The position numbers and the translations under genes were made by a program. Below are positions 2,979 through 48,427 of a DNA stretch of 64,000 bases, piece after piece. This stretch comes from Williamsia sp. Lineage in GTDB: Bacteria; Actinomycetota; Actinomycetes; Mycobacteriales; Mycobacteriaceae. The notes beneath the pieces are model-generated. The model saw only the letters and a list, made by a program, of their open reading frames with translations. It searched no databases and was not told the origin of the DNA. Positions within the stretch are counted from its first letter, which is position 1. Each line of letters opens with the position of its first letter. The stretch spans positions 26,852 to 90,851 of the forward strand of contig NZ_DATCVM010000115.1 in NCBI RefSeq assembly GCF_036566845.1, read 5' to 3'.

Positions 2979-4348
2979 CCGCAGTCGAGAACAACACCTC
3001 CACACTTGGCGCCCGCTCAGCACGCCACCTGTGGGGCCATTTCTCCAGACACGGCGACACGACCACACCACCTGTCATCACCCGCGGCGAAGGCGCCCGC
3101 ATCTTCGACGACCGCGGCCGCAGCTACCTCGACGGACTGTCGGGACTCTTTGTGGTGCAGGCCGGACACGGCCGCATCGAACTCGCCGAGGCCGCCGCCA
3201 AGCAGGCCAAGGAACTCGCGTTCTTCCCTCTCTGGTCCTATGCGACCCCACCGGCCATCGAATTGGCCGAACGCCTCGCACACCATACACCGGGCGACCT
3301 CAACCGGGTCTTCTTCACCACCGGCGGTGGCGAAGCCGTGGAAAGCGCATGGAAACTTGCCAAGCAGTACTTCAAGCTGACCGGCAAACCCGGCAAGCAC
3401 AAGGTCATCTCGCGGTCGATCGCCTATCACGGCACACCGCAGGGCGCGCTGGCGATCACCGGTATCCCGGCGCTGAAAGAGGCGTTCGAACCGCTCACAC
3501 CGGGCGCGTTCCGAGTACCGAACACCAACATCTACCGCGCCGGCGAGCACGGTGACGACCCCAAGGAATTCGGTATCTGGGCTGCCAACCGCATCGCCGA
3601 GGCCATCGAGTTCGAGGGGCCCGACACGGTTGCCGCGGTGTTCCTCGAGCCCGTGCAGAACGCGGGCGGCTGCTTCCCGCCACCGCCCGGTTACTTCCAG
3701 CGCGTCCGCGAGATCTGCGACCAGTACGATGTCCTCCTGGTCTCCGATGAGGTGATCTGTGCGTTCGGCCGGATCGGTTCGATGTTCGCCTGCAACGACT
3801 TCGACTACATACCCGACATCATCACCTGCGCGAAGGGCATGACCTCGGGCTACTCCCCGATCGGCGCGATGATCGCAACCGACCGGCTCTTCGAGCCCTT
3901 CAACGACAACGCCACATCGTTCGCCCACGGCTACACCTTTGGCGGACACCCGGTTTCGGCGGCCGTCGCACTCGCGAACCTCGACATCTTCGAGCGCGAG
4001 GGTCTCAATGATCGGGTCAAGACGCTGGCTCCGGACTTCCGGCGGACTCTCGAACGTCTGCACGACCTGCCGATCGTCGGAGACGTGCGGGGCGAGGGCT
4101 ACTTCTACGGCATCGAATTGGTGAAAGACAAGGCCACAAAGGAAACCTTCACACCCGATGAGGCCGAGCGGGTCCTGCGCGGTTTCCTGTCGACTGCATT
4201 GTTCGACGCCGGACTCTACTGCCGCGCCGACGATCGGGGCGACCCGGTGGTGCAACTCGCGCCTCCACTCACCTGCGGGCAGGCCGAGTTCGACGAGATC
4301 GAGCAGATCTTGCGCTCGGTGCTGACCGAGGCCTACACCAAGATCTGA
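2975..4348 (+). CDS. Class III PLP-dependent aminotransferase (putrescine/omega-amine transaminase, Rv3329-like)
   Basis: YLDGLSGL, FFTTGGGEAVE, LEPVQNAGG, DEVICAFGR, AKGMTSG (PLP Lys); ATG 2975 overlaps the Lrp stop. Confidence 0.9.
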   Translation: MTAVENNTSTLGARSARHLWGHFSRHGDTTTPPVITRGEGARIFDDRGRSYLDGLSGLFVVQAGHGRIELAEAAAKQAKELAFFPLWSYATPPAIELAERLAHHTPGDLNRVFFTTGGGEAVESAWKLAKQYFKLTGKPGKHKVISRSIAYHGTPQGALAITGIPALKEAFEPLTPGAFRVPNTNIYRAGEHGDDPKEFGIWAANRIAEAIEFEGPDTVAAVFLEPVQNAGGCFPPPPGYFQRVREICDQYDVLLVSDEVICAFGRIGSMFACNDFDYIPDIITCAKGMTSGYSPIGAMIATDRLFEPFNDNATSFAHGYTFGGHPVSAAVALANLDIFEREGLNDRVKTLAPDFRRTLERLHDLPIVGDVRGEGYFYGIELVKDKATKETFTPDEAERVLRGFLSTALFDAGLYCRADDRGDPVVQLAPPLTCGQAEFDEIEQILRSVLTEAYTKI

Positions 4349-30206: not shown

Positions 30207-30283
30207 GACTACTCCTCGTGAATTTATGACCCCGCAGGCGCGTTGCCCACCCAAACCATAACACTGCTATGTATTGTGGATCC

Positions 30284-30889
30284 ATGGTTCGCGTCAAGAA
30301 TCCTGAGATCCGATCGATGCTCATCGAGCGCGCAGCACAGATGTTGCGGGCACGAGAACCGGTGACCTTGCGGGCACTGGTGTCGGGGACACCGGTCTCC
30401 ACGATGGCGGTCTACACGTACTTCGACGGCATGGAGGGGCTGTGGAAGGCCTTGCGCCAGGAGGGTTTTACCCGGCTTTCCCAGAAACTTGCCGACGTCG
30501 AACCATCCGCAGATCCAGTGCAGGACCTCGCTGCGCTGGGTGCGGCATATCTGTCCAACGCGCTGGAGAATCCCGACCTGTACCGCGTCATGTTCGATGC
30601 AAGCGTTGATCTCGAAGACGCCCCGGCCGCCGATGCGTCGCTGCATCGACTGGTGGTCGCGGCGCAGCGGTGCCGGACCGCCGGCCGATTCAACGCCGAC
30701 ATCGACCCACTCGAGGTCGCGACACAGAGCTGGATGATCGGCCACGGCCTCGCCTCCCTGGTGGCCACCGGACCGCTGCCGACCGCCGCCCTGGCCAACG
30801 CGGTCCCGATGCTGACCGCCCTGTTCACCGCAGCCGGCGACGAGGCCGACCGATGCCGGCGGTCGGTCGTCGCCGGCTGGAAACCGTGA
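30284..30889 (+). CDS. TetR/AcrR family regulator (WHG-type C-terminal domain)
   Basis: HTH TLRALVSGTPVSTMAVYTYF; YRVMF and WMIGHGLASL; divergent from the Rid gene. Confidence 0.85.
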   Translation: MVRVKNPEIRSMLIERAAQMLRAREPVTLRALVSGTPVSTMAVYTYFDGMEGLWKALRQEGFTRLSQKLADVEPSADPVQDLAALGAAYLSNALENPDLYRVMFDASVDLEDAPAADASLHRLVVAAQRCRTAGRFNADIDPLEVATQSWMIGHGLASLVATGPLPTAALANAVPMLTALFTAAGDEADRCRRSVVAGWKP

Positions 30890-30912: not shown

Positions 30913-30984
30913 CGCAAACGAGCCACCTGTACAAAGATGAGCCACGTATTTGTGGCTCGTCTTTGTACAGGTGGCTCGTTTGCG
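30913..30984. repeat. 72-bp intergenic hairpin (33-bp arms, one G-T mismatch, 6-nt loop), REP/MITE-like
   Basis: CGCAAACGAGCCACCTGTACAAAGATGAGCCAC-GTATTT-GTGGCTCGTCTTTGTACAGGTGGCTCGTTTGCG read directly. Confidence 0.85.
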
Positions 30985-31029: not shown

Positions 31030-31494
31030 GTGTTCAGAATGCTATTTCACGAACCATGTATCCCGCCCAACACCGGCAACGCGATCAGATTGGCTGCCAA
31101 CACCGGGTGTGAACTCCACCTCGTCGAACCACTCGGATTCGACCTCTCGGAACCGAAAGTCAAACGCGCCGGACTCGATTACCACGATATGGCGACGGTG
31201 AGTGTCCACGCCGATCTCCTGGAGGCATGGAGCGCACTGGCCCCCAAGCGGGTGTACGCCTTCACCGCCCATGCCGACACGTTCTACACCGACATCAAGT
31301 ACGAATCGGGCGATGTGCTGCTGTTCGGTCCGGAACCCACCGGACTGTCGGACGCGGTCCTGTCCGATCCGCACATCACCGAAACCGTCCGCATCCCGAT
31401 GTTGCCCGGTCGCCGCTCCCTCAACCTGGCCAACGCGGCCAGCATCGTGATCTACGAGGCATGGCGGCAACACGGATTCCCCGGTGCGGTCTGA
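31030..31494 (+). CDS. trmL: tRNA (cytidine(34)-2'-O)-methyltransferase (SPOUT)
   Basis: PPNTGNAIRL, RAGLDY, LLFGPEPTGL, RSLNLANA. Confidence 0.93.
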   Translation: MFRMLFHEPCIPPNTGNAIRLAANTGCELHLVEPLGFDLSEPKVKRAGLDYHDMATVSVHADLLEAWSALAPKRVYAFTAHADTFYTDIKYESGDVLLFGPEPTGLSDAVLSDPHITETVRIPMLPGRRSLNLANAASIVIYEAWRQHGFPGAV

Positions 31495-31497
31495 GAT

Positions 31498-31917
31498 TCA
31501 GTCGATCGGCAGGCCCCGCATGACGAACTTGCGCAGCATGATGGGTGTCGGTTCGGCGATCAGGAGTTCGGCGTTGTCGGCCGGGTTGGTCTCGGTGACC
31601 GTCAGCTGCAGCTCACCGCCGGGCAGGATGTCCGCGGTGTAACCGCGCTTGTCGCGTTCCCATTGCATGCTCAAACCACCGGCCGACGTGGCCGATGGTG
31701 TGGACTCGGTCCAGTAGGAGCTGCTCAGGCCGTCCCAGTACGACTCGAAGAACGCCTTGGCCGGGGCCGTCGGCGCCAGCGAACCCTCGCCTTTCCAGCC
31801 GTCCTCCAGTTCCCAGAGGTCCTTGATGTGGGTGTCGATGACCCGCTTTGCGTTCGCCTGGTCGTCGCCCGACGCTTGCTTGTCGAGATTGCTCGAATAC
31901 GTGCTTCTCGTGGTCAT
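31498..31917 (-). CDS. Hypothetical 139-aa protein, candidate retron-associated gene
   Basis: Fills the trmL-RT gap; globular-looking sequence (LWELEDGWKGEGSLAP...GGLSMQWE); preceded by TAGCCT-N6-ATG. Confidence 0.7.
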   Translation of the reverse strand: MTTRSTYSSNLDKQASGDDQANAKRVIDTHIKDLWELEDGWKGEGSLAPTAPAKAFFESYWDGLSSSYWTESTPSATSAGGLSMQWERDKRGYTADILPGGELQLTVTETNPADNAELLIAEPTPIMLRKFVMRGLPID

Positions 31918-31974
31918 ATACCGAGGCTAGGCCCTTTCCGGCCGCCGGGTATCCCGGGTAGCCGACGCCGACCT

Positions 31975-33258
31975 TCATCGGCCCCAGTCAACCTGTTCGG
32001 CCATTGCGAGCAACTGTGCACGCCGGCGCGGGCTGGTGGCACCGATCCAGGCGATCTTTCCGTAGACGTGCTCGCGAAAGTGGAGGTGACCCGCGTGGTT
32101 CTGCGCCGCCGCACCGGTTCGGATGGCGTTGTGTAGCAACGCCCGCAGGTTGTCGTGGTCTCGGCGCGCGACGCGTGGTCGGTCGTTGACCACGAGCCCG
32201 GCGAGTCGCTGACGCTGATGAGCACGCATGATCTTCGTCTTCTCCGGGTGCACCACAAAACCCTCAGCGGCGATGATGCGCAACAACACCCACAGGACGG
32301 CATCCGGGTCCATCCGGTCACCGGAGATCGCCAGGTCGTCGCCGTATCTGGTGTACCGCAAGTTGTTCTTCTGCGCGTACCCCCAGATCCGGCGGTCCAT
32401 GGCACGCATGGCAAGGTTGGCGAGTGCCGGAGACGTCGGCGCCCCCTGCGGTAGGTGGCGTCCGCGCAGCAGAGAGGCATGACTGTGGTCCACCCGGGCC
32501 AGTTCGTGTGCCGGTGTGGCGGTGGTGCAGAGTTCGGCAAGCACCCTGGCCGCGCTGGTGTAGCCGACCGCGGAGAACACGGCCCGGACGCGAGCCGCCG
32601 ATACGGACGAGAAGCAGTTCTTCAGGTCGAGACGCAGGACCACCGGCCGGTCGGTATGCGGCCAGGCGAAGCTGGTGGTGGAGGTGCCCGGCGCAAAACC
32701 CCGCGCTGCCTGATGCGGTGGAATGTGATCGAGGATCTTCCGGAGAATGCGCCGCTGAATCTCCCGCAGATGCGGTTTGGGGGCCTCGATCAACCGGACC
32801 CCGTCACGTTTGGGAATGGTGATGTATCGGTAGTGCTGCAGTGTCGGGTTCTTCGATCGCAACCAGTGGCCGCGATCGGCCATCCATTCCAGCTCGCCCA
32901 CCGTCAGATTCAGCCAATGGGCCACCGCTGTGTAATCGCGGAACTCAGGGAGTCCGAAGCGCATCTCCGCCGGGGATGCTTCGGTGAAGACCTGCGAGCG
33001 GACCTCTGTGACCAAAGGAGTCAGAAACTCTCGCACGGTCTGCGGGTCCGAGGGGCGATCCGGAAAGCGATCAAGCAGCAGCCCCAGCAGGTCCGGGACA
33101 TCCGCGCGTTCGACCTCCGACGCCAGCATCTCACTCAGCGCCACCACGGACCATCGTGGATCCACCTCGAGACGAGTGATGAACAGGTCAAGAGAACTGG
33201 CCGACAACCTGATTGCGGGACCCAGTCCGCCCAGAGTGTAGTGGTCGTCGTCGGTCAA
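31975..33258 (-). CDS. Retron-type reverse transcriptase
   Basis: YRYITIPKRDG-RLIEAPK, FAWPH (region X position), LDLKNCFSSV, LPQGAPTSPALAN, YTRYGDDL, HPEKT, QRLAGLVVN (region Y position). TTG start uncertain. Confidence 0.9.
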   Translation of the reverse strand: MTDDDHYTLGGLGPAIRLSASSLDLFITRLEVDPRWSVVALSEMLASEVERADVPDLLGLLLDRFPDRPSDPQTVREFLTPLVTEVRSQVFTEASPAEMRFGLPEFRDYTAVAHWLNLTVGELEWMADRGHWLRSKNPTLQHYRYITIPKRDGVRLIEAPKPHLREIQRRILRKILDHIPPHQAARGFAPGTSTTSFAWPHTDRPVVLRLDLKNCFSSVSAARVRAVFSAVGYTSAARVLAELCTTATPAHELARVDHSHASLLRGRHLPQGAPTSPALANLAMRAMDRRIWGYAQKNNLRYTRYGDDLAISGDRMDPDAVLWVLLRIIAAEGFVVHPEKTKIMRAHQRQRLAGLVVNDRPRVARRDHDNLRALLHNAIRTGAAAQNHAGHLHFREHVYGKIAWIGATSPRRRAQLLAMAEQVDWGR

Positions 33259-33266
33259 CGGGCCGG

Positions 33267-33428
33267 ATGCGCGGCGGCGGGGTGACCATCGACTTGTGTC
33301 GGCGGCGCCGTGAAGTCACGCGAAGCGTGCCGGCCGGCGTCGGATGCTGATCCCAACTGTGCAATGTACCCAGGGGTTACCCCTGAGACGGGTTCTGCGA
33401 ACCCACTCTCCCCCCGCCCACCGCGCAT
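33267..33428 (-). ncRNA. Candidate retron msr-msd non-coding RNA
   Basis: 5' arm ATGCGCGGTGGGCGGGG (33428-33412) pairs with 3' arm CCCCGCCGCCGCGCAT (33282-33267), 16 bp with one G-U pair and one bulge; two adjacent 6-bp stem-loops (33390-33404, 33371-33385); further hairpin potential in 33290-33345; 3' arm ends 8 nt before the RT start. Confidence 0.72.
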
Positions 33429-33434
33429 GGCCAC

Positions 33435-33440
33435 ATGCTA
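33435..33440 (-). promoter_or_regulatory. Candidate -10 hexamer (TAGCAT) for the retron transcript
   Basis: TANNNT followed by 6 nt places +1 exactly on A33428, the first base of the 5' inverted-repeat arm. Confidence 0.55.
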
Positions 33441-48399: not shown

Positions 48400-48427
48400 T
48401 CGAACCGAAACTCGAACATGTTTTCGA
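48400..48427. promoter_or_regulatory. LexA (SOS) box upstream of imuA', with an overlapping weaker copy
   Basis: TCGAAC-ATGT-TTTCGA (48412-48427, one mismatch) and TCGAAC-CGAA-ACTCGA (48400-48415, two mismatches). Confidence 0.8.

Follow-up and report, generated by a model that had tools for sequence, protein, structure and literature searches.

Whether the reverse transcriptase (RT) gene that lies downstream of dnaE2 in a Williamsia sp. genome is part of a complete retron, to which retron lineage it would belong, and what such an element could do when no effector gene accompanies it, are the questions raised by the locus described here. The locus is located in a stretch of 64,000 nucleotides (NCBI RefSeq assembly GCF_036566845.1, contig NZ_DATCVM010000115.1, positions 26,852 to 90,851 of the forward strand), hereafter called the window, whose numbering is used throughout. 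On its minus strand, a promoter-like hexamer, a noncoding RNA (ncRNA) gene with the features of a retron msr-msd, and the RT gene follow one another (Table 1). We estimate a probability of roughly 0.8 that this is a genuine stand-alone retron of the family represented by the PADLOC models RT_other and RT_outgroup and that it works through multicopy single-stranded DNA (msDNA); the production of msDNA, taken by itself, is likely. A previous reading of this DNA, made from its letters only (the sequence-only reading), had proposed a complete retron with a promoter, an msr-msd closed by the inverted repeats a1 and a2, and an RT downstream, and this proposal is strongly supported by the comparative data.

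The Retron RNA in the Window

The elements that the sequence-only reading had quoted on the minus strand are all found where it placed them, correct to the base. The TAGCAT hexamer, which overlaps the end of the DUF167 gene region, is separated by the six bases GTGGCC from A33428, the first base of a1 (this arm begins with ATGCGCGGTGGGCGGGG, 33428-33412). The ncRNA was delimited from this base to T33267, the last base of a2, whose stretch 33282-33267 reads CCCCGCCGCCGCGCAT; eight bases, CCGGCCCG, lie between the end of a2 and the TTG start of the RT gene at 33258. When the segment was folded as a single sequence, a1 paired with a2 and the quoted hairpins formed inside, with a minimum free energy of -94.6 kcal/mol (z = -3.34) that was equalled by none of 200 shuffled sequences. 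The hairpin quoted as CAGGGG-TAA-CCCCTG is present, but its stem comprises 8 bp (CTCAGGGG/CCCCTGGG) and not the 6 bp assigned to it.

Other signals in this DNA were less conspicuous. The a1/a2 pair ranked only 11th among the 19 inverted repeats of a 2.5 kb region (16 nt, 81% without a bulge). A search of Rfam at a permissive threshold over 30-35 kb returned no family matching the retron RNA, only spurious miRNA-type matches on an unrelated palindrome, and a generic sigma-70 promoter scan found nothing. Taken alone, the window sequence gives an RNA signal that is only moderate.

Conservation and Covariation of the RNA

An alignment-based scan of species-representative genomes recovered 80 related loci, which together with the window gave 81 sources; a scan of genome contigs with the single protein as query had yielded no confirmed relative. 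In most of these loci, the longest inverted repeat within the 900 nt upstream of the RT match adjoins the RT start and spans approximately 150-175 nt, with an arm sequence that varies by lineage. The individual folds share the same order of elements: a1, an unpaired G, a variable hairpin, a hairpin of the form CUCAGGGG-UAA-CCCCUGGG (which is also the RNA form of msr hairpin 2 in the window), a spacer, the msd stem, and a2. The ncRNA has a single conserved architecture, with variants in which hairpin 1 is short or long; both the sequence and the length of this hairpin differ among relatives.

In plain MAFFT alignments, the a1/a2 arms were out of register and were missed by RNAalifold, and an ungapped anchor search fails for loci with bulged arms, the window among them. 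Because MAFFT did not keep the arms in register, the sequences of 13 close relatives were trimmed to 14-nt arms anchored on the A/G and G/U junctions, and a covariance model (R1) was built from them. RNAalifold recovered all the helices from the trimmed alignment, with 17 covarying pairs. Model R1 gave 67 matches in the 81 sources, one in each case, always on the strand of the RT gene and directly upstream of it, and these matches include many loci and phyla outside the set used to build the model. In the 64-kb window, a single match was obtained, at 33272-33422 on the minus strand (144.9 bits, E 2.7e-26).

The pairs of the aligned matches were then counted against controls in which the 3' partners were slid by 1-3 columns. 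Standard pairs were formed by 95.1% of the cells, versus 39-46% in the slid controls; compensatory double changes were present in 37 of the 41 pairs, and the covariation score was 0.648, versus at most 0.105 in the controls. In the a1/a2 helix (helix 1), all 14 modelled pairs showed compensatory changes and 94.1% of the cells were paired, which answers the question of whether the inverted repeats covary among homologues. The same was true for msr hairpin 1 (helix 2; six of six pairs, 92% of cells paired) and for the two msd helices (helices 4 and 5; 13 of 13 pairs, 94-95% of cells paired), which RNAalifold recovers independently. Msr hairpin 2 (helix 3) is nearly invariant across phyla: 99.6% of its cells were paired, with three invariant pairs and four that showed compensatory changes, and it is likely to be an element recognised by the RT. 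Compensatory changes of this kind indicate selection for pairing, and on the comparative evidence the RNA structure lies far beyond chance.

The junctions of the closing helix were also conserved. A-U forms the innermost a1/a2 pair in 54 of 67 sequences. After a1, the first unpaired position holds a G in 58 of 62 and follows an A in 55 of 63; a2 itself opens with T in 55 of 63 and comes directly after a G in 55 of 56. Since a G is conserved after a1, G33408 is the predicted branching residue; it falls within the sequence GGAGAG (33411-33406, minus strand), where the sequence-only reading had expected the branch to be. G33286, just 5' of a2, is predicted to be the first templating base, and the msd stem-loop would be the template for the DNA hairpin of the msDNA.

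Upstream of the RNA, a strict TANNNT hexamer that starts 11-17 nt before the 5' end of the helix was found in 43 of 65 loci, compared with 1.25% of random positions, and several Mycobacteriales loci have CANNNT in the same place. The TAGCAT hexamer of the window fits this pattern, so that a dedicated promoter is well supported, from which transcription would start at or near A33428. The sequence derives from four small soil-metagenome runs; their assembled contigs had a flat depth and gave no usable signal for msDNA or transcription starts, nor did the contigs of Rhodococcus-related RNA runs, which for the most part covered the flanks.

Three Rhodococcus loci (L011, L012, and L015; L numbers are our handles for the loci, followed where needed by positions within them) present an additional feature. 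In these, the promoter and the entire ncRNA both lie inside an outer inverted repeat (GCAACGCGCTGACA ... TGTCACAGCGTTGC), as at L015:3531-3544 and 3734-3747, and a TGTCACAGCG unit recurs after a2.

The Reverse Transcriptase

The predicted protein matched Pfam RVT_1 (4.9e-21) and, near full length, two PADLOC models, RT_other (PDLC02949; 555.8 bits, 2.7e-167) and RT_outgroup (PDLC03740; 527.9 bits, 5.1e-159). The RT_XIII model aligned with residues 99-422. Among the NCBIfam models, three of retron-type RTs led the results, below their curated cut-offs and far above the models of group II introns and of defence-associated RTs (DRT). A sequence search of PDB returned retron RTs as the 14 best matches, led by Ec86 (1.1e-28), with group II intron RTs at 2e-5 or weaker. 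An AlphaFold2 (AF2) model based on 75 homologues reached a predicted local distance difference test (pLDDT) value of 89.4, and its comparison with PDB using Foldseek gave only retron RTs at ranks 1-18 (Ec86, Eco2, Eco7/Ec78, a type I-A retron, Ec83, and Eco8). PADLOC, NCBIfam, the PDB sequence search, and Foldseek thus all rank retron RTs first. By these wide margins of sequence and modelled fold, the enzyme belongs to the retron lineage and not to group II introns, diversity-generating retroelements (DGR), abortive infection (Abi) systems, or DRT.

The catalytic residues D211 and Y305-G-D307-D308 (YGDD) are invariant in an alignment of 22 and in another of 75 homologues, and about 50 further positions are invariant across the 75. 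In region X, FAWPH aligns with NATPH of Ec86, with A198 invariant in the 22 sequences and H201 in both alignments; in region Y, LAGLVVN aligns with VTGLVIS of Ec86, with G354 at least 90% conserved. The histidine of NAxxH and the glycine of VTG were reported as the most conserved residues of these motifs by Mestre et al. 2020 (PMC7736814). Residues 140-425 correspond to the fingers, palm, and thumb that contain YGDD, and residues 99-135 to retron-type N-terminal helices that match those preceding RT1 in Ec86. An extra N-terminal domain of four helices (residues ~17-85) is comprised within the first 95 residues (33258-32974, minus strand); in this domain W36 is invariant and the sequence is otherwise variable, and the RTs of Amycolatopsis lack it and start right after a2.

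The RT gene is intact. Its open reading frame (ORF) is full length and colinear with its homologues, the closest of which is 95% identical and likewise encodes 427 residues, and the TTG start occupies the same alignment position as the W. muralis orthologue's ATG. The nearest homologues are from Williamsia (70-75% identity), followed by those of Gordonia, Dietzia, Rhodococcus, and Nocardia; remoter relatives with the same RNA were found in Pseudonocardiales, Acidobacteriota, Planctomycetota, Myxococcota, and Burkholderiales. In eight relatives from five phyla, two of these relatives being Myxococcota, RT_other and RT_outgroup scored well above RT_XIII, and this common ranking indicates a single coherent RT family that is distinct from type XIII.

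Relation to Known Retrons

The sequence-only reading had suggested an undescribed type of retron, a suggestion that cannot be maintained. Mestre et al. 2020 described clade 11 as essentially restricted to Actinobacteria and formed by stand-alone (msr-msd)-RT cassettes with confidently predicted msr-msd structures, and suggested its vertical inheritance and possible domestication (PMC7736814). With this clade, and with the RT_other/RT_outgroup family whose PADLOC models cover the RT near full length, the window retron shares the RT match, an actinobacterial host, an upstream ncRNA closed by a1/a2, and the lack of a conserved partner; it also bears the signs of vertical inheritance noted for the clade. 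Nothing that defines clade 11 differs, and we infer that the PADLOC models correspond to it. The particulars of the window locus are the four-helix N-terminal domain, the position after dnaE2 and the DUF167 gene, and the lineage-specific ORF139. Judged by the name of the matching hidden Markov models (HMM), taxonomy, and architecture, the retron is most likely a clade 11 member, so that its lineage has most likely been catalogued already and the locus would add a member and not a new type. A 2026 survey of SPIRE (preprint) that used clade11-A/B covariance models, which Rfam does not include, reported clade11-A in Pseudomonadota, Actinomycetota, and Acidobacteriota and gave it a low novelty priority; these taxa partly overlap those of our 81 loci.

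The next-nearest typed RT family is type XIII, which corresponds to clade 10 and includes Retron-Mxa1 (Mx162), Mxa2 (Mx65), Nex2 (Ne144), and Sau1 (Sa163); according to Mestre et al. 2020 (PMC7736814), these retrons have SWIM/winged-helix and HEAT/ARM partners. This type and the window retron both combine long a1/a2 arms with an RT extended at its N terminus, and both bear signs of vertical inheritance. However, the window RT scores about 240 bits lower with RT_XIII than with the model of its own family (313.6 versus 555.8 bits), and proteins with winged-helix/SWIM zinc-finger or HEAT/ARM domains are absent among the neighbours in the window (dnaE2, DUF167, ORF139, trmL, TetR, RidA, and the pentapeptide-repeat protein) and in the relatives examined. 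The previous description of the protein as an Mx162-type RT is therefore not supported.

The closest solved structure is that of Retron-Eco1 (Ec86; 7V9U/7V9X), which Foldseek matched with an E value of 1.5e-20 and a template modelling (TM) score of 0.68 on the length of Ec86. Besides the helices before RT1, the motif pairs FAWPH/NATPH, LAG/VTG, and YGDD/YADD correspond, and the RNAs have in common a1/a2, an unpaired G after a1, msr hairpins, and an msd stem. In contrast, the two proteins are only 27% identical, the window RT has about 95 additional N-terminal residues, and Ec86 has an adjacent nucleoside deoxyribosyltransferase-like effector that the window retron does not have. The branch of Retron-Eco5 (Ec107), in clade 2, resembles the window retron as a stand-alone ncRNA-RT cassette with no linked effector, but it belongs to a different RT clade and its model, RT_Ec107-like, gave the window RT 186.7 bits. 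As a whole, clade 2 is found mostly in Gammaproteobacteria (Mestre et al. 2020, PMC7736814) and its Ec107-like group mainly in Bacillota (SPIRE preprint). Khan et al. tested retrons of every RT clade for the production of RT-DNA and observed high levels in clades 2, 9, and 10, almost none in clades 3 and 4, with intermediate levels otherwise (PMC10849725).

Genomic Context and History of the Locus

The features of the locus are collected in Table 1. Two of its genes had been overlooked in the sequence-only reading, the DUF167/YggU gene and ORF139. The former sits between dnaE2 and the ncRNA and is missing at that position in W. muralis (L001). For the SpoU-like gene on the opposite strand, the TrmL models were the best matches, yet below their cut-offs.

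Table 1. Coordinates of the retron and of other genes in the window.
Feature	Position	Strand	Basis or remark
TAGCAT, -10-like promoter hexamer (TANNNT)	33440-33435	-	6 nt upstream of the first a1 base
msr-msd retron ncRNA gene, ~162 nt	33428-33267	-	Fold, covariance model, pair counts
a1 arm (5' closing)	33428-33409	-	One bulged G and one G.A mismatch near the inner end
Predicted branching (priming) G, GGA-G-AG	33408	-	First unpaired base 3' of a1
msr hairpin 1, GGGTTC-GCA-GAACCC	33404-33390	-	Helix 2 of the pair counts
msr hairpin 2, CTCAGGGG/CCCCTGGG, 8 bp	33387-33369	-	Helix 3 of the pair counts
msd stem-loop, two stacked helices around GCACGC-UUC-GCGUG	33342-33303	-	Helices 4 and 5 of the pair counts
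a2 arm (3' closing), begins at U33285	33285-33267	-	Sequence, fold, pair counts
Retron RT, 427 aa, TTG start	33258-31975	-	Pfam RVT_1, PADLOC, PDB, AF2/Foldseek
ORF139, 139 codons	31917-31498	-	57 nt downstream of the RT stop
DUF167/YggU gene, 72 codons	33663-33445	-	PF02594 3.5e-20; TIGR00251 7.5e-23
dnaE2 (error-prone DNA polymerase, ImuC)	37007-33720	-	NF004225, 1537 bits versus a cut-off of 939
SpoU/TrmL-like tRNA methyltransferase gene	31030-31494	+	SpoU_methylase 1.5e-30; convergent with the retron
imuA'-like ORF	48335-47472	-	No Pfam match
ImuB-like IMS-family gene	47471-45891	-	Directly after the imuA'-like ORF

ORF139 is probably a real gene, with a GC content at third codon positions (GC3) of 0.86, and is not regarded here as belonging to the retron. 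An orthologue accompanies the RT in just one of the 80 related loci, that of W. muralis (57% identity); in Williamsia sp. Leaf354 it is absent and trmL lies directly after the RT. No match was found in Pfam or NCBIfam, nor among phages or plasmids, and PADLOC gave two weak matches (E 0.003 and 0.067). A set of 49 remote representatives carried no Pfam family except for Ig-like repeats in giant proteins, and an AF2 model from the single sequence was unusable (pLDDT 42.5). The relatives of ORF139 are mostly small proteins in which the homologous part is C-terminal, and its residues ~70-130 match the repeated Ig-like modules of the giant proteins.

Conserved partners of the RT were sought by all-against-all clustering of the ORFs of the 81 loci, which revealed no family beyond the RT itself, only synteny at the level of lineages. 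The genes after the RT elsewhere encode, depending on the lineage, a pentapeptide-repeat protein, ZnuA, a Na/Ca exchanger, a universal stress protein, or a subtilase. The third component of a tripartite retron, be it an effector or a fused domain, is thus lacking; stand-alone cassettes are a known class of exceptions. In Amycolatopsis and Crossiella, an MfpA-like pentapeptide-repeat gene starts between 3 nt before and 23 nt after the RT stop (for example, L038:5037-5624, L052:4969-5562, and L024:5011-5634). The window also has a pentapeptide-repeat gene in the same orientation (29777-29181, minus strand), situated 1.7 kb further downstream beyond trmL, and this distance points to shared synteny rather than to an operon partner.

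In Amycolatopsis, a gene in convergent orientation lies about 700 nt downstream of the retron-pentapeptide pair; its 968-aa product has a tuberculosis-necrotizing-toxin (TNT) domain at the C terminus (L038:5694-8600, minus strand, and other Amycolatopsis loci).

Upstream of the retron, dnaE2 is present on the same strand in 15 of the 81 loci (Williamsia, one Gordonia, nine Amycolatopsis, and two Actinocrispum), in a synteny block that spans two actinobacterial orders and whose position is also shared by Crossiella. The identities of RT and dnaE2 to their window counterparts fall in step (71/88, 56/77, 51/74, ~46/61, and ~43/65%, respectively). The GC content is flat across the locus, no tRNA gene is present at it, and a search for flanking direct repeats found in the region only short two-copy matches of chance quality. 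The conserved synteny, the divergence of the RT along with that of dnaE2, and the flat GC content make the retron look like an old resident of the chromosome. A recent insertion or a mobile island was rejected as an explanation on the basis of these same features together with the lack of a tRNA gene and the chance-level repeats, and with it the previous description of the retron as inserted between trmL and dnaE2. The surrounding genes have metabolic or regulatory functions (FolD, a strictosidine-synthase-like protein, RidA, TetR, dehydrogenases, and a serpin), and no defence-island context was found among them.

Possible Links to the DNA-Damage Response

A LexA/SOS box, TCGAATGTATGTTCGA (37034-37019), with a single mismatch to TCGAAC-N4-GTTCGA, ends 12 nt upstream of the ATG of dnaE2 (37007), and a terminator search of the minus strand predicted no such site from dnaE2 to the RT gene. 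With this box at dnaE2 and no terminator in between, SOS-driven read-through into the retron is possible.

Another damage-related signal was observed in relatives. The RecA-NDp motif, associated with PafBC, has the consensus tTGTCRgtg-8 nt-TAnnnT (PMC5656591). A strict version, TGTC[AG]GNG-N8-TANNNT, coincides with the retron promoter in five loci: three of Amycolatopsis, one of Crossiella, and a metagenome-assembled genome (MAG) of Pseudonocardiaceae (L028:3839, L034:3797, L040:3797, L052:3526, and L057:3768). Four of these five carry the full TTGTCGGTG, in the form TTGTCGGTG-N8-TAGGGT or similar. Only six strict matches occur in the 1.34 Mb formed by both strands of the 80 loci, so that five of the six are at a retron promoter. 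Looser versions were found at L065:3512, L051:3469, and L024 ~3470; the sources with such versions are a Nocardioides, a Bryobacteraceae member, and another Amycolatopsis. The only strict site of the window (48457, minus strand) served as a positive control: it lies at the imuA'-imuB promoter, beside two LexA-like boxes (48400-48427) that precede these genes. The window's own retron promoter carries neither a RecA-NDp nor a LexA motif.

The window holds all three mutasome genes, imuA', imuB, and dnaE2.

These sequence features are regarded here as a lead and not as a conclusion. A broader reading, which we consider unlikely, is that effector-less actinobacterial retrons are old, vertically inherited members of the DNA-damage regulon and not mobile defence islands. 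It would include read-through from dnaE2 in Williamsia, a PafBC/RecA-NDp promoter in Amycolatopsis, Crossiella, and their relatives, and a participation of the msDNA or the RT in damage signalling, tolerance, or induced mutagenesis beside DnaE2-ImuA'B. If true, it would assign a housekeeping function to a retron.

Proposed Mechanism and Alternative Explanations

In the mechanism that we propose for a stand-alone retron, transcription would proceed from the promoter with the TAGCAT -10 element, from or near A33428, and read-through from dnaE2 with its LexA box could add transcript. The 5' ~162 nt would fold so that a1 pairs with a2 and presents the two msr hairpins and the msd stem-loop, and the same transcript would also serve for translation of the RT, whose start lies 8 nt beyond a2. 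The enzyme would bind the msr, probably through the invariant CUCAGGGG-UAA-CCCCUGGG hairpin, and the 2'-OH of the unpaired G33408 would prime DNA synthesis, beginning opposite G33286. The RT would then copy the msd stem and halt in the A/U-richer spacer at ~33345-33365, leaving a branched RNA-DNA msDNA whose DNA part would measure ~60-80 nt. The RT-msDNA particle would be the functional product and, with unlinked host factors, may sense nucleic-acid stress.

Several points weigh against this interpretation. Because the pair counts come from an alignment fitted to the model, the pairing is inflated, an effect that the slid controls and RNAalifold lessen but do not remove. Throughout the family, the N of NAxxH is replaced by F, leaving xAxxH as the motif, and the V-T of VTG is replaced by L-A. 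The stretch from a2 to the TTG start shows no Shine-Dalgarno sequence. Membership of clade 11 is assigned by HMM name, taxonomy, and architecture. Finally, since no effector is present, the toxin-antitoxin logic of retrons does not apply, and the functional part of the proposal is weakly supported.

Some of these points would also suit two alternatives that deny the locus a working retron. The gene could encode another kind of bacterial RT, derived from a group II intron or related to the DRT/UG or Abi enzymes, that happens to follow GC-rich hairpins formed by chance; the 11th place of the a1/a2 repeat among 19 in the single sequence, the lack of an Rfam family, and the NCBIfam retron models falling below their cut-offs could be read in this way. 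This is hardly credible, since retron RTs outrank every other RT class by both sequence and fold, and the RNA, whose place with respect to the RT is fixed, covaries across phyla; this evidence brings the idea close to refuted. A decaying, non-functional remnant kept by linkage only is very unlikely. It would be in line with the missing effector, the replaced motif residues (N to F; VT to LA), the TTG start, and the lack of a visible ribosome-binding site; nevertheless, the replacements are common to the whole family and so do not represent private damage, the ORF is full length and colinear with its catalytic residues and ~50 other positions invariant in 75 homologues, the RNA shows compensatory changes, and the -10 element is conserved in position.

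The remaining alternatives accept the retron and differ in its role. The retrons whose biology is understood are all three-part toxin-antitoxin defence systems, and this is the mode of all the characterised ones (background in Mestre et al. 2020, PMC7736814). A conventional tripartite anti-phage retron would have a lineage-specific toxin next door (ORF139 here and the pentapeptide-repeat protein in Amycolatopsis), kept inactive by the RT-msDNA until a phage interferes. The real-looking ORF139, on the same strand and 57 nt after the RT stop, and the pentapeptide-repeat gene that adjoins the RT stop in Amycolatopsis and Crossiella would agree with it. However, we consider it unlikely, given that ORF139 is confined to two loci, is lacking in Leaf354, and has only its two weak PADLOC matches and none in phages or plasmids; that unrelated housekeeping genes follow the RT at the other loci; that the pentapeptide-repeat gene is also found in the window at a distance, as expected from synteny; and that no defence-island context is present. 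A retron domesticated in the DNA-damage response, expressed with or like the SOS/PafBC regulon and serving tolerance, mutagenesis, or signalling together with DnaE2/ImuA'B, is unlikely as well. The position of dnaE2 directly upstream in 15 of 81 loci of two orders, its LexA box without a predicted terminator before the retron, the coincidence of five of the six strict RecA-NDp matches with retron promoters in a search that also finds the imuA'-imuB promoter, the parallel divergence of RT and dnaE2, and the domestication that Mestre et al. suggest for the clade all argue for it. On the other side, the window's own retron promoter has neither motif, the retron is far from dnaE2 in most Gordonia, Rhodococcus, Nocardia, and Dietzia loci, the dnaE2 link is part of a wider block with the pentapeptide-repeat and trmL genes and so may be historical, and damage-inducible expression would equally suit phage defence.

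The stand-alone retron with an msDNA mechanism is thus the explanation that we favour. If the locus is indeed a retron, a role in anti-phage immunity falls somewhat short of even odds, a domesticated role tied to the DNA-damage response is a less probable possibility, and some other role would account for the rest. For the question of what effector-less retrons do, the locus offers a clean and complete example with an explicit anatomy, which comprises the promoter, the predicted branching residue G33408, the invariant msr hairpin, the msd stem, and the RT active site. In the literature searched, we found no characterisation of actinobacterial effector-less retrons in a native host, nor any report of the conserved position after dnaE2 across two actinobacterial orders or of a RecA-NDp (PafBC) promoter driving the retron RNA in several relatives. 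If both of these last observations hold, a retron would be linked to the DNA-damage response, either as a damage-triggered defence or in a domesticated function; if neither holds, the locus would be one further member of a catalogued retron clade.

A Hairpin Upstream of trmL

A near-perfect hairpin with 33-bp arms (GCAAACGAGCCACCTGTACAAAGATGAGCCACG-TATT-...) was observed at 30915-30983, between a TetR-like gene (30269-30889, plus strand), whose stop lies 26 nt before it, and trmL, which begins 47 nt after it. The hairpin has a GC content of ~51% and no second copy in the window; it could act as a terminator or an operator, or represent a small repeat element.

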